Below the pieces are notes generated by a model. That model saw only the letters and a program-made list of their open reading frames with translations. It did no database searches and was not told the DNA's origin. Positions 5,557 through 38,056 of a DNA stretch of 64,000 bases are shown one piece after another (positions within the stretch are counted from its first letter, which is position 1; every line of letters begins with the position of its first letter). The translations under genes and the position numbers were made by a program. The stretch comes from Desulfomonilia bacterium (lineage in GTDB: Bacteria; Desulfobacterota; Desulfomonilia; UBA1062): the NCBI GenBank assembly GCA_963664325.2, contig CAXXDQ010000007.1:832001-896000 (forward strand). The letters are read 5' to 3'.

Positions 5557-5583
5557 AAGGCACCCTACGAAAGGAATATAATC

Positions 5584-34087: not shown

Positions 34088-37000
34088 ATGGAGACTGAGC
34101 GGAGCAAGGAAACTTTGGAACAGCATGAATCAGGTCTGCCTGCCATAAAGAGACACGGCGTACGAACCGACAAGCTGCGAGTCCTTAAGATACAGCGCAC
34201 CTGTGTTCATGACGGCCCCGGCATACGCACCACGGTTTTCTTCCAGGGGTGCGGTTTGAGGTGTCTGTGGTGCCAGAACCCCGAGGCGCTGTCCATCAAT
34301 CCGGACCTGGCTCCGGACAGCGACTATTCGATTTCCGACATCATGGAAGCGGTCCTGCGGGACAAGGACTATTACTTCAAAACCGGCGGCGGGGTGACGC
34401 TGAGCGGAGGCGACCCGCTGCTGCAGGACCCGGACAGCCTGATACGCCTGCTGGAACTGCTTATAAAAGAAAAAATCCACATTGCCGTCGAAACCTCCCT
34501 TCACGTGCCCTGGGAAAATATTGACAAAATTGCGCCCTATGCAGACCTGTTCCTTGTCGACCTGAAGCTTGTCGGCGATGACAGCCTTCACAAGCAGTAC
34601 ACGAAGCAGGACAGCAGGCTGATCCATGAGAATATCAGGAAGCTGATCGATTTGAATGCGAAAGTCAAATTCCGCATGGTCATGGTGCCAGGCTACAACG
34701 ACAGCGACAGCCGGATAAAAGCGACCGCGGATTTTCTGAAGTCAGTCGGCCACGATTCAATCGAACTGCTCAAATACCACAACATGTACGAGGATAAGGC
34801 GAAGCGCCTGGGCATAGAACAGAAATCACTGAACATATCGAATGAGAGCGCCGTCGCTTCGGTCAAAGCGGCCGTCGAGCTGTTCAAATCATACGGCATA
34901 AAGGCGGAATGCATCGACCTGGACACCGCCAGACACAAGGCCGTCTTTACCCAGCGGGTCTATGACATACAGAACGCGATCAGGACCAGCGATCACAGCC
35001 TGTGTTTCGAGGTTTCCAACCTCAAGACCGACTTCTACAAGAAGAACGGTTTCGACGAGCCTTCATACATCCACAGGGCCAAGCGCCTTGATTATGTGCT
35101 CAAAAACAAGAGCGTCATCGTCTATCCCGGCGAGCTGCTGGTCGGCAACTATACCGAAAAAAGGCGCGGCGCACAGGTATGGGAAGAGCACTATGGCGCT
35201 CTCCTGGTTTCAATCATCCACCAGATCCATAAACAGACCCCGGTTTCATTTCAATGCTCGTTAAAAGACAAGCTGACCTTCTATTTCAAGATATTCCCGT
35301 TCTGGATGAACCGTTGCCTCATGATGAAGGTGAACAAGACCTTCAAGGATTTGAGGATGATGATTGCGCGCTCTTCCGAGATGAATGTGGGATTCAACAA
35401 TAATATGGCATCTGTCGCACATTTTGTAGTCAACTACGAGCGCATGCTCGAGCTTGGAACAACGGGCATCATCAAAGAGATCGAGACCATGAAGAAGGAG
35501 AAACCTGAAAACAATCAGGACTTCTATGACGCCGCAATCATTACGCTCAGGGCGCTGGAAGCCTGGGCCGAACGCTATGCCGGTAAACTGGCAGAGATGA
35601 GCAGAACGGAATCCGACCCGGCGCGCAAAAAAGAGCTCGAAGACATGGCCGCCATCTGCAGGTATGTCCCCAGAAACCCGGCGCGCACATACCATGAGGC
35701 GCTCCAGAGCATGATGTTCATACATATCGGGCTTTGCCTGGAGACCTTTGAAAATGCGATATCCCCGGGCAGGCTGGACATGATACTCAACCCCTACTAC
35801 GAAAGGGACAAGGCGGCCGGTATAATCGATTATGAAAGGGCGAAAGAGCTCCTTGCGCTCTTTATCATCAAGATGGACGAAGCCATCTTTGTAAACGACG
35901 GCGATACCTATCTCAGGGTCGGAAGGCTATTCGAGACCATGTCCACAGACCAGACAGTAACCGCGGGCGGCCTTGGCAGAGACGGCAAGGATGCGACAAA
36001 TGACCTCACTTATGCCCTCCTTGATATCTGCGAACTGCAGCCCTATGCCATAAACATGACGGCCAGAATCCATCAGGACAGCCCGGTTGAATATCTCGAC
36101 AGGCTTGCCGAAGTCTACATAAACGGCGCGCCGATGCCTGCGCTTTATAATGACGAGCTTTACATCGAGACTCTGCAGAAGCATTACGGCACCACGGTTG
36201 AAGACGCCAGGAACTATGCGATAATAGGCTGCGTCGAGCCCAATGCATCGGACGACCATTACGGCAATACCGACTGCGCGAACATGAACGTGACGCTTCC
36301 GTTCCTTCAGGCATTAAAAGGCGAAGAAAACGATTTGTGGAACTTCGACTTCTGGGACGAGCAGGAAAAAATCCAGACCAAATTTATAGAATACAACTTC
36401 AGCGGCGACGGCAAGGCCTCGAAGTTCATATTCAACAATTACATGAAGGCGAGAGACTTCTACAAGAAGATGAGAACCCCTGCTCCGAATCCGCCCAGGA
36501 ACATGGATGAGCTGATGGAGCGCTTCCAGACCCGCCTTAACTTCCTGGCGACCTCCATCCTGACAGACCACCAGAAGATCGAAGTGGCTATCCGCAAAGA
36601 CTTCACCACTCCGCTCGCTTCATCCCTGTCCAGAAATTCCATCGCCACCGGAAAAGACCTTAACGAAGGCGGCGCTAAGTTCAACAGCAGCGGCATTCAG
36701 GCGGTCGGCATCACCGATGTGGCCGATTCCCTGCACGCAATAGACGTGGTCGTTTTCAAGAAAAAGCTCTACTCTCTCATGGACATCATCAATGCCATAA
36801 ACCATGATTTCAAAGGCGAATACTATACCCAGATAAGAGAGGCCCTTCTTGCAGTGCCCAAGTTCGGGCAGGACGAGTCCCAGGAGGCAATCGACTGGGT
36901 CAACAGGACATTGCAGGTTTATATAAACGCGCTCGCCCAGGTGCCCAACTGCACGAGAAACGGCATATATGCAGCCGGCTATTACGCGCTCAACGTAAGC

Positions 37001-37429
37001 GACGTCTACGGCAAAAAGACGCCGTCGCTGCCTTCAGGCAGGTTGAAGGGCGTGCCCCTGGCCAACAGTGTGGCCCCTCATTACGGAATGGAGTTCGCCG
37101 ACCTCTTATCATCGCTCAATTCGGTGGCAGGCGTTGACTTTGTGAAATACGCGCCGAACGGGACTACTGTTACATTTACCATCGACTCAGCCCTGTTCCA
37201 GGGACCGGGAGGAACCAGGAACCTTGCCAGCATATTCAGCACCTATTTCAAAAAGGGCGGCATGCAGTTCCAGCCCAATGTCATCGACAAACAGATTTTG
37301 ATAGACGCATACGACCACCCGGAAAAGTACCCGTTCCTGCTGGTCCGCGTTGCAGGCTACTGCGCCTACTTCAACGACCTGTCAGACGATCTAAAGAAGA
37401 TAATTATCAACAGGACGTGTTACTGCTAG
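34088..37429 (+). CDS. Fusion of a radical-SAM glycyl-radical activating enzyme and a glycyl radical enzyme (PFL-like superfamily)
   Basis: N-terminal HDGPGIRTTVFFQGCGLRCLWCQNPE (CX3CX2C) and GGVTLSGGD; C-terminal SPGRLD, YAIIGCVEP and LLVRVAGYCAYF. One uninterrupted 1113-aa ORF. Confidence 0.93.
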   Translation: METERSKETLEQHESGLPAIKRHGVRTDKLRVLKIQRTCVHDGPGIRTTVFFQGCGLRCLWCQNPEALSINPDLAPDSDYSISDIMEAVLRDKDYYFKTGGGVTLSGGDPLLQDPDSLIRLLELLIKEKIHIAVETSLHVPWENIDKIAPYADLFLVDLKLVGDDSLHKQYTKQDSRLIHENIRKLIDLNAKVKFRMVMVPGYNDSDSRIKATADFLKSVGHDSIELLKYHNMYEDKAKRLGIEQKSLNISNESAVASVKAAVELFKSYGIKAECIDLDTARHKAVFTQRVYDIQNAIRTSDHSLCFEVSNLKTDFYKKNGFDEPSYIHRAKRLDYVLKNKSVIVYPGELLVGNYTEKRRGAQVWEEHYGALLVSIIHQIHKQTPVSFQCSLKDKLTFYFKIFPFWMNRCLMMKVNKTFKDLRMMIARSSEMNVGFNNNMASVAHFVVNYERMLELGTTGIIKEIETMKKEKPENNQDFYDAAIITLRALEAWAERYAGKLAEMSRTESDPARKKELEDMAAICRYVPRNPARTYHEALQSMMFIHIGLCLETFENAISPGRLDMILNPYYERDKAAGIIDYERAKELLALFIIKMDEAIFVNDGDTYLRVGRLFETMSTDQTVTAGGLGRDGKDATNDLTYALLDICELQPYAINMTARIHQDSPVEYLDRLAEVYINGAPMPALYNDELYIETLQKHYGTTVEDARNYAIIGCVEPNASDDHYGNTDCANMNVTLPFLQALKGEENDLWNFDFWDEQEKIQTKFIEYNFSGDGKASKFIFNNYMKARDFYKKMRTPAPNPPRNMDELMERFQTRLNFLATSILTDHQKIEVAIRKDFTTPLASSLSRNSIATGKDLNEGGAKFNSSGIQAVGITDVADSLHAIDVVVFKKKLYSLMDIINAINHDFKGEYYTQIREALLAVPKFGQDESQEAIDWVNRTLQVYINALAQVPNCTRNGIYAAGYYALNVSDVYGKKTPSLPSGRLKGVPLANSVAPHYGMEFADLLSSLNSVAGVDFVKYAPNGTTVTFTIDSALFQGPGGTRNLASIFSTYFKKGGMQFQPNVIDKQILIDAYDHPEKYPFLLVRVAGYCAYFNDLSDDLKKIIINRTCYC

Positions 37430-37442
37430 ATTGATCTATGAA

Positions 37443-37476
37443 GGGCCATGTCATTGAGACATGGCCCCTGTGTTTT
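37443..37476 (+). terminator. Probable intrinsic terminator after the GRE fusion
   Basis: GGGCCATGTC-ATTGA-GACATGGCCC followed by CTGTGTTTT. Confidence 0.65.
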
Positions 37477-37531: not shown

Positions 37532-38056
37532 ATGAAATACAAGATATTTGAGGCAAACACTGCCGATCTTGAGCCACTTCAAAAATACCTGATACAGTTT
37601 TTCAATCTAGAGATTGAAGGAATTTCACAAAGGCCTGATGGGATAACCCTGGCCGAGGTAAAAGAATATATTCCAGATGATTCAAATATTAATGATAAGC
37701 TTTGCCTCCTGGCAAAACTCGATAATGCAATTGTTGGCAACCTGACTTTGAAAAGAAACCCCAAGTTCGAATACCGTCATTCAGGCGAATTCGGGATAAC
37801 AGTCTTTCCTGAGCATCAAAACAAAGGCATAGGTACAGCTCTGATCAGCAAAATGGAAAAATGGGCAAAACAAAATAATTTTATAAGACTCGAGCTTGGA
37901 GTTTGGTCAAACAACACCAATGCAATAAATCTCTATAAAAAGCTTGGATATTCGTTTGAAGGTATAAAGAAAGATGCTATCATCAGGTTCTCTAATGTTT
38001 ATGACTTGATACTTATGGTGAAAATGATTCGCGACATAAAAAGCGGCCATTATTGA
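37532..38056 (+). CDS. GNAT family N-acetyltransferase (AT-rich)
   Basis: HQNKGIG and NTNAINLYKKLGY. Confidence 0.9.
   Translation: MKYKIFEANTADLEPLQKYLIQFFNLEIEGISQRPDGITLAEVKEYIPDDSNINDKLCLLAKLDNAIVGNLTLKRNPKFEYRHSGEFGITVFPEHQNKGIGTALISKMEKWAKQNNFIRLELGVWSNNTNAINLYKKLGYSFEGIKKDAIIRFSNVYDLILMVKMIRDIKSGHY

Follow-up and report, generated by a model that had tools for sequence, protein, structure and literature searches.

The gene described here lies in a 64,000-nucleotide (nt) stretch of DNA from a Desulfomonilia bacterium (GenBank assembly GCA_963664325.2, contig CAXXDQ010000007.1, positions 832,001 to 896,000, forward strand), which is called the window throughout. On its plus strand, positions 34088−37429 (stop codon included) hold a single open reading frame (ORF) of 1113 codons from an ATG, with zero internal stops, in which an activase and a glycyl radical enzyme (GRE) are fused. 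The initial annotation of this DNA had placed a short-type activase in about the first 280 amino acids (aa) and a complete GRE in the remainder, and this division holds. A radical S-adenosylmethionine (SAM) activase domain at residues ~30−275 (34175−34912; Pfam and TIGR02494 matches) is followed by a junction at residues 276−288 (34913−34951), which leads from the last strand of the activase to the first helix of the GRE, and then by a GRE of the pyruvate formate-lyase (PFL)-like type at residues 289−1113 (34952−37426; Pfam PFL-like and Gly_radical). The extent of the frame and the positions given earlier for the motifs of both halves proved exact.

A conserved fusion and its locus

Conservation was read from 71 full-length members of the family, which are 52−92% identical to the window protein. 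In the activase half, Pfam places Radical_SAM at residues 50−207 and Fer4_12 at residues 42−130, and all of the marks of a GRE-activating enzyme are present. The CX3CX2C motif (C55, C59, and C62; 34250−34273), whose cysteines would be the ligands of the radical-SAM [4Fe-4S] cluster, occurs in 71/71 sequences; the glycine-rich SAM-binding motif GGVTLSGGDP (residues 101−110; 34388−34417) is kept across the family, with D or E at position 109; and TIGR02494 (PFLE_PFLC) scores 218.6 bits, above its curated cut-off of 174.35. The residues of this half that never vary are C55, C59, W61, C62, G102, T104, S106, G107, G108, and P110. Near its start lies a DGPGIR loop (residues 42−47; 34211−34228), which we take to be the motif through which the activase binds the Gly loop; in a 50-sequence alignment, D42, G43, and G45 are invariant, and P44 and R47 are kept in at least 90%.

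The GRE half matches PF02901 with 451.5 bits from residue 288, and PF01228 with 77.2 bits (IPR004184), the latter delimiting a glycyl radical domain at residues 992−1096 (37061−37375; E = 1.7e-21). Both loops of a PFL-like GRE are found. The catalytic Cys loop reads GCVEP (residues 714−718; 36227−36241), with C715 as the single catalytic Cys and E717 completing a CXE motif. The Gly loop, RVAGY (residues 1087−1091; 37346−37360), fits the pattern RVxG[YF] and contains the predicted radical site, G1090 (37355−37357). Throughout the 71 sequences the invariant positions are H445 (35420−35422), E555, N556, A557, G714, C715, V716, E717, and P718 in the first part of the GRE, and N727, T728, D729, G964, Y965, Y966, A967, L968, R1087, A1089, G1090, and Y1091 in the remainder.

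Is the fusion real? A search of a 5.8-billion-protein collection gave 585 matches at E ≤ 0.001 among 8000 candidates scored, and each of the 120 matches listed unites PF04055, PF02901, and PF01228 in one chain (1040−1139 aa, 68−91% identity). They carry names such as “pyruvate formate lyase family protein”, “radical SAM protein”, and “formate C-acetyltransferase”. In a survey of contigs representing one genome per species, 120 stretches encoded a relative; 80 of these were taken for ORF calling, and complete single ORFs of at least 1085 aa were found at 70 of them, the remaining 10 all being cut by a contig end. The carriers are all metagenome-assembled genomes (MAGs). By their NCBI labels they belong to Smithella and other Thermodesulfobacteriota, Desulfomonilia, “Bacteriovoracaceae”, Myxococcota, and Spirochaetota, and further to Clostridia/Christensenellales (Bacillota), Promethearchaeota, Sigynarchaeota, and Hadarchaeota. 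Closer to the window, 12 of the 122 genomes of its class carry the gene, none with an internal stop; within the class it occurs in 11/51 genomes of the window's own family against 0/70 of the other, and each of the three further genomes of the genus has it. The homologues thus keep the architecture that the initial annotation had proposed to look for, rather than two separate genes.

The junction itself is equally regular. The segment spanning residues 265−300 is 36 aa long in 67/71 sequences, 35 in two, and 37 in two, and since this length stays at 36±1 aa in 71/71, we regard the junction as a fixed joint and not a floppy linker; in the structure model it runs from a strand at 272−274 to a helix at 289−300, with a predicted local distance difference test (pLDDT) score of 76−85. 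Judged from the alignments, both halves are under constraint and the two evolve together: mean identity to the window protein is 0.67 over the activase and 0.68 over the GRE, and the two values correlate at r = 0.70.

The contrary explanation would be an artefact, i.e., two genes misjoined through a fault in assembly or sequencing, or else a decaying gene with a dead activase. The initial annotation had asked for spanning sequence at ~34900−34960. No stop or frameshift is present there, and contigs from three sequencing runs (X1, X2, and X3) cross the junction with 0 differences and 0 gaps; because all three runs stem from one sample, possibly the source of the window, this is not independent support, and the artefact explanation can point to it. 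It can also point to the many short database proteins that match the activase part alone. The independent support comes instead from the 70 other complete single-ORF loci, which come from independent assemblies and six phylum-level groups. As for the short proteins, the 49 best matches stop at scattered query positions, many with non-matching tails, or at contig ends, and the activase motifs do not vary across the 71 sequences. An artefact is thus extremely improbable; the fusion is virtually certain to be real, and both halves are very probably functional, as far as their motifs can tell. A search with the activase region found no split form among the shorter proteins, although fragments cannot exclude one.

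Two candidates from the short proteins and metagenome contigs were rejected. P0308 (264 aa) was considered as a stand-alone activase, but its frame leaves the contig end in L097. L128, considered as a split form, is an ordinary PflB with a frameshifted PflA: positions 5567−8673 of this metagenome contig encode a classical PflB, with two adjacent Cys and RVSGY, followed by PflA in two frames (7956−8294 and 8278−8673).

The gene has its own expression signals and stands by itself, as had been noted initially. A ribosome-binding site, AAGGAG (34077−34082), was located by sequence inspection 5 nt upstream of the ATG. Further upstream, a sigma-70-like sequence, TAGCCA-17-TATACT (34019−34047; plus strand, 9/12 consensus matches), is a weak promoter candidate only, because the region holds 8 such sites against 3.4 expected. 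Downstream, a fold and shuffle test supports an intrinsic-terminator-like hairpin with a T-rich tail (37443−37477, plus strand): a GC-rich 10-bp stem at 37443−37467 is followed by CTGTGTTTTC, and the fold of −23.6 kcal/mol (z −4.47) was equalled by 0/200 shuffles. The neighbouring genes in the window encode a methyltransferase, a GNAT acetyltransferase, a metallophosphoesterase, and an enoyl-CoA hydratase, none of which recurs beside the homologues at the loci compared. The fused gene has the same GC content (0.51) as the DNA upstream of it, and there is thus no island signal.

Some details of the surrounding DNA deserve mention. The ORF called at 37448−38056 starts within the terminator hairpin that follows the GRE gene. 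A likelier start codon for the GNAT acetyltransferase is the ATG at 37532, because the Pfam GNAT match fits inside this shorter form. A direct repeat of 300 nt with 97% identity (38107−38406 and 42156−42455) bounds ~3.7 kb of low-GC DNA (0.35−0.45 vs ~0.52 around it), an arrangement suggestive of an insertion that duplicated its target. The repeat copy at 38.2−38.6 kb is a duplicate of the 3′ end of a sulfatase-like gene on the minus strand (42268−44082).

The GRE half and its possible chemistry

In a neighbor search over 1.84 billion representatives clustered at 50% identity, no other GRE representative is more than 38% identical to the GRE half; at that clustering level the family reduces to one full-length representative (P0002) plus fragments, and the next match stands at 38%. 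A quick maximum-likelihood tree of 59 rows gathers its 13 family members in one clade, with a support of 100 in the Shimodaira−Hasegawa-like approximate likelihood ratio test (SH-aLRT) and a stem of 0.65. The neighbors of this clade are uncharacterized, and none reaches any NCBIfam equivalog cut-off.

The profile scores tell the same story for the window protein. It scores 122.3 bits against a cut-off of 994.2 for pyruvate formate-lyase (TIGR01255) and 475.2 against 678.2 for the PFL2/glycerol dehydratase subfamily (TIGR01774), a cut-off that its neighbors P0124 (623) and P0128 (646) likewise fail to reach. The other equivalogs also stay far below their cut-offs: 344.6/1100 for HypD (NF043068), 299.2/1050 for CutC (TIGR04394), 343/1000 and 340.8/1000 for HpsG/HpfG (NF048011 and NF048009), 326.7/1109 for PflD (NF007437), 235.3/1100 for indoleacetate decarboxylase, and 211.1/1150 for hydroxyphenylacetate decarboxylase. 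Since all of the NCBIfam equivalogs lie far below cut-off and the family forms its own clade, the GRE half belongs to no characterized subfamily, as the initial annotation had anticipated. Its proposal of a new GRE class is sustained with regard to the separate clade, but “class” is too strong a word: on present sequence evidence, the family is an uncharacterized subfamily of CXE-type PFL-like GREs. It also has an insertion of its own after the Cys loop, at residues ~735−802 (36290−36493), which is variable in sequence and predicted to form a helical hairpin (helices 755−771 and 776−796 in the model). This insertion comprises ~68 residues, vs ~29 in the glycerol dehydratase 1r8w, and ranges from 68 to 77 aa across the family with low conservation.

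What reaction might such an enzyme catalyze? PFL-type chemistry is ruled out because the Cys loop has a single Cys, where pyruvate formate-lyase has two adjacent catalytic ones. The CXE motif is invariant in 71/71 sequences, and a hydrogen bond from its Glu to a substrate hydroxyl is the defining role of this residue in CXE-type GREs. Decarboxylases also carry a Glu two residues past the Cys, and CXE is not diagnostic alone. C715 and E717 align with Cys433 and Glu435 of 1r8w, and H445, D729, and Y966 with H164, D447, and Y640 (for H445, in a HMMER alignment). In a 2026 review of the superfamily (PMC13450708), the CXE motif is described as kept by 1,2-eliminases and isomerases, and section 27 of the review names His164 of glycerol dehydratase as the residue proposed to protonate the leaving hydroxyl. 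With moderate confidence, the GRE half can be read as an eliminase or isomerase of the CXE type, a C−O eliminase or isomerase being the most likely form. In such an enzyme, the radical on G1090 would generate a thiyl radical on C715, which would abstract hydrogen from a hydroxylated substrate, as in other CXE-type GREs; E717 would deprotonate or hydrogen bond to the hydroxyl, and H445, perhaps with D729, would assist the leaving group.

The gene context adds a little. No conserved pathway genes were found beside the homologues at 81 loci. A GntR/FCD(FadR_C) regulator lies upstream at 17 of these, Smithella-type loci among them, and a TetR regulator at three, and an MFS_2 sugar-type transporter occurs at eight, all in Bacillota. 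Two related loci also have two xylose-isomerase-like TIM barrels, a GDPD protein, a PI-PLC-X protein, and a flavoprotein, and two other related loci a transketolase subunit, RpiB, and IclR. These neighbors give a faint indication that the substrate is a sugar or polyol, and the lead comes from the eight MFS_2 loci and the two pairs of related loci.

A self-activating fusion could also contain a GRE half with a different chemistry, that of an X-succinate synthase-like hydroalkylase or of a decarboxylase. The hosts include Smithella and Asgard MAGs, lineages discussed as hydrocarbon degraders; the score falls short of the PFL2-3 subfamily (475 vs 678 bits); a FadR-type regulator stands upstream at 17/81 loci; and Archaeoglobus fulgidus PFL2 is among the best fold matches, an enzyme whose function, according to PMC13450708, is debated between dehydratase and alkylsuccinate synthase. 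Against this chemistry, small-subunit genes are not conserved beside the fused gene, the matches to MasD/BSS are much weaker (151.7 bits for 9o8u and 88.6 for 4pkc vs 336 for 1r8w), E717, H445, and D729 are invariant and aligned with glycerol dehydratase residues, and the Bacillota loci have sugar-type neighbors. A hydroalkylase or decarboxylase is on balance improbable, and an eliminase or isomerase remains the preferred assignment.

The activase half and the activation step

According to PMC13450708, activases with a ferredoxin insert are the majority type, and the only ones named there as lacking this domain are the PFL-activating enzyme (PFL-AE) and the activase of the class III ribonucleotide reductase. 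To these can be added the fused family and a few stand-alone short activases in our activase tree. That the insert is absent, as the initial annotation had claimed, is clear from several observations. TIGR02494 aligns in two stretches (model positions 1−43 and 103−283) and skips positions 44−102, which correspond to an 8-Cys insert; residues 1−285 hold only five Cys (C39, C55, C59, C62, and C275); and in place of the insert the window protein has a 20-aa segment with 0 Cys, where its relatives have ~70 aa with 8 Cys. Residues 71−77, at the expected insert site, have a pLDDT below 50 and would be what remains of a lost insert. A tree of 78 activase sequences, with Escherichia coli PflA as the root, shows the family as one clade (SH-aLRT 99) nested among activases with the ~70-aa, 8-Cys insert, its own segment measuring 16−20 aa with 0−2 Cys. 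By this placement, the activase half probably lost its ferredoxin insert; because the rows were picked by similarity to the query and include a single PflA, loss is the likelier reading and is not proven.

How do the two halves sit together? A full-length AlphaFold2 model, built from a 50-row alignment, has a mean pLDDT of 88.2 and a predicted template modeling score of 0.86, and falls below 50 only at residues 1−26 and 71−77. Its best Foldseek match is glycerol dehydratase 1r8w (target-normalized TM 0.92, 29% identity), followed by propanediol dehydratases, A. fulgidus PFL2, CutC, PflD, and HypD; no chain spans more than two thirds of the query. For docking, the activase (residues 30−285) and the GRE body (residues 370−1113) were folded as separate chains, with our own alignment. 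The untethered activase is predicted to bind the glycyl radical domain with an ipSAE interface score of 0.77, the best of 3 controls giving 0.00; the docking runs share at least 82% of their contacts, with a partner pLDDT of at least 81. The reference for this mark, which 58/80 solved complexes and 2/110 mismatched pairs reach, is approximate here, the alignment being our own.

On the GRE side, most of the predicted contacts fall in residues 1005−1056 (37100−37255), just upstream of the Gly loop and in or beside the modeled helices 1006−1014 and 1039−1055: these are residues 1005−1008, 1011, 1036−1039, 1041−1042, 1044−1045, 1048−1049, 1051−1052, and 1055−1056, to which 929−930 are added. The activase would contribute residues 37−46, 87−99, and 276−279, the first of these including the DGPGIR loop, whose residues 45−46 lie within the predicted interface. 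In PMC13450708, PFL-AE is the sole activase with an experimental structure, and its complex with a 7-mer peptide is the sole structural view of activation. Because the only solved complex is this peptide-bound form, the docking result is unlikely to be a memory of a solved structure. A resting pose docked in cis is favored in the models, because the junction is short and fixed and the monomer model is confident; docking alone cannot separate cis from trans.

From these elements a sequence of events can be proposed. The N-terminal activase, made of the radical-SAM domain only, would carry one [4Fe-4S] cluster on C55/C59/C62 and bind SAM. A cellular flavodoxin or ferredoxin would reduce the cluster, giving a 5′-deoxyadenosyl radical, and this would take a hydrogen from G1090 in RVAGY as the C-terminal glycyl radical domain swings out. 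The short junction of fixed length would keep the activase by this domain, and the model puts it directly on it; together, these two features would mean that the enzyme carries its own activase at 1:1. The radical could be installed either within the same chain (cis) or on the other chain of a dimer.

We consider it fairly likely that the gene encodes a natural, working fusion in which a GRE-activating enzyme is joined to a GRE of its own; its self-activation, its activity, its chemistry, and the class of its substrate are what we infer from the material above. More tentatively, and with somewhat less than even confidence, we propose a pre-assembled activation complex, i.e., an activase without the two auxiliary clusters that is permanently parked on its own glycyl radical domain. 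If true, one gene would be enough for a working radical enzyme, and this would account for the stand-alone context, the patchy distribution, and the spread across bacteria, Asgard archaea, and Hadarchaeota.

Several points weigh against the main reading, that of a working natural fusion. The chemistry is assigned by motif, because no characterized family reaches its cut-off and two residues of the glycerol dehydratase active site are replaced (H281 by N556 and S282 by A557), both of which we take to contact glycerol. The gene context is weak, with only the regulator at 17/81 loci and MFS_2 at 8/81. The docking score expresses model confidence and is not a measurement, and residues of the predicted interface show no significantly higher conservation than the remaining ones (18/37 vs 339/963 residues conserved at 90% or more; Mann−Whitney p = 0.23). 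No RNA run was found among the sequencing runs that contain the stretch. A permanent 1:1 tether is not obviously advantageous either, because, as stated in PMC13450708, PFL-AE and PFL at 1:1 quicken the loss of the radical as well as its installation. Finally, the window's own genome encodes seven intact GREs, the fused one included, and only three stand-alone activases.

This last count invites another explanation: the fused activase might be mainly a shared one that acts in trans on the other GREs of the cell, the fusion doing nothing more than co-regulate the two. The six further intact GREs lie, by contig and position, at C7:76528−78465, C4:41542−43446, C7:239205−241136, C7:86190−88307, C3:409498−411627, and C5:38673−40208, and none of the seven reaches a characterized equivalog cut-off. 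Three of the six adjoin a stand-alone activase, each of the three activases standing beside one GRE, and the GREs at C7:76528, C7:86190, and C4:41542 have no activase next to them; with seven intact GREs and a broken one for three stand-alone activases, the fused activase could also serve such orphans. Stand-alone activases could serve these orphans equally well, though, and other genomes argue for a dedicated enzyme. A Hadarchaeota MAG (G125) and a Christensenellales MAG (G126) keep the fusion although their sole other GRE has an adjacent stand-alone long activase; the fused activase there has no other obvious client. In addition, the halves co-vary (r = 0.70), the junction has a fixed length, and the docking prediction puts the activase on the glycyl radical domain of its own GRE. 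A mainly shared activase is therefore unlikely, less probable even than the alternative chemistry considered above, while it is quite likely, as the sequences stand, that the activase serves its own GRE.

The genome of the window is unusually rich in GREs. At C3:416129−418265, a few kb from a GRE−activase pair, it holds a GRE in two pieces, with an in-frame TGA in the match of the upstream piece; the gene may be a pseudogene, be frameshifted, or contain a recoded codon.

Wider interest and comparison with known systems

Many uncultured anaerobic bacteria and archaea have kept the fusion, which could ease the study of an activation step that is poorly understood. In PMC13450708, the flip of the glycyl radical domain out and back is described as not understood, insoluble activases as a major bottleneck, and stabilized GRE:activase interfaces as something wanted; the characterized PFL-like GREs are all given there as bacterial. 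With its rigid junction and the predicted pose of its activase on the radical domain, the fusion is an obvious specimen for capturing activation. If the pose is true, this would be the first tractable full-length activase:GRE assembly for cryo-electron microscopy, and a way around insoluble activases. Does radical installation proceed in cis or in trans, and is only half of the sites loaded? A natural 1:1 fusion permits tests of both questions, and it bears on whether the auxiliary ferredoxin clusters are dispensable once the partner is tethered. The fused family also marks a large uncharacterized GRE clade in syntrophs, Spirochaetota, Clostridia, and Asgard archaea.

As to novelty, no description of an activase−GRE fusion was found in the searchable literature; subscription papers and supplementary files lay outside its reach, and a prior mention there is possible. 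Term look-ups returned no mention of it in PMC13450708, PMC9850924, PMC9888536, PMC6325248, PMC8163825, or PMC12583861, nor in the 2024 paper on aminoacyl radical enzymes (PMC11528403). The parts are known, while the architecture, and an activase with the radical-SAM domain only on a CXE-type GRE, is undescribed in the searchable texts. It is not categorically new, because its parts are known and its architecture is visible in domain databases. The fusion reported initially is indeed conserved, but it is not the only one of its kind and has not been out of sight: homologues by the hundred are already public, annotated generically, and at least two other lineages, represented by P0124 (1095 aa) and P0133 (1136 aa), fuse a long, ferredoxin-type activase to a GRE.

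Side observations extend this variety. A Sigynarchaeum MAG (G123) holds two GREs fused to short activases, at C205:1819−4653 and C265:8123−10936, in frames of 1129 and 1117 aa. The PFL-like match of the C205 copy is unbroken (positions 2−647), and for this reason it may lack the family insertion and be a second fused subfamily. Another protein, P0139 (943 aa), has an N-terminal SCP2 sterol/lipid-transfer domain (PF02036, 37−118) before its PFL-like domain, and may be a lipid- or hydrocarbon-handling GRE.

Among the systems to which the window protein can be compared, P0124 and P0133 share the order activase-then-GRE, and their GRE halves are near the family, at 38% and 35% identity. They differ in that the two-cluster ferredoxin insert is kept and TIGR02494 matches in one stretch. 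They are also uncharacterized, lying below every equivalog cut-off and below that of the PFL2-3 subfamily, and they do not form one clade with the family. Because the unfused P0125 and P0128 interleave with the fused lineages, the fusion was gained or lost more than once in this neighborhood of GREs.

Of the characterized enzymes, the B12-independent glycerol dehydratase of Clostridium butyricum (1r8w) is the best sequence match, at 336 bits, with an identical GCVEP and the RVAGY shared. Together with the 1,2-propanediol dehydratases (5i2a and 9rco), it belongs to the CXE-type 1,2-eliminases; these dehydratases are only 27−29% identical to the fused GRE. The fused GRE differs by ~40 aa of extra insertion after the Cys loop, and the dehydratases have a separate activase with a ferredoxin insert, whereas here the activase is fused and has the radical-SAM domain only. 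The PflD and YbiW isomerases, which act on 1,5-anhydrohexitol-6-phosphate, resemble the fused GRE in the CXE motif, with matches of 257−266 bits, and in the sugar-type context of some Bacillota loci; they differ in their separate activase and in the distance of the window protein from the PflD equivalog.

For the activase, the natural comparison is E. coli PFL-AE (PflA; 3c8f and 3cb8), which is of the same size class, likewise has one CX3CX2C cluster, and lacks a ferredoxin insert. Its match to the fused protein covers residues 40−269 with 97 bits, and TIGR02493, the PFL-AE model, aligns in one stretch, with a score of 154.9 that is below its cut-off of 231.75. PflA is a free protein, catalytic on PFL, whereas the fused activase groups inside the 8-Cys activases; given this position, its short form looks secondarily derived.

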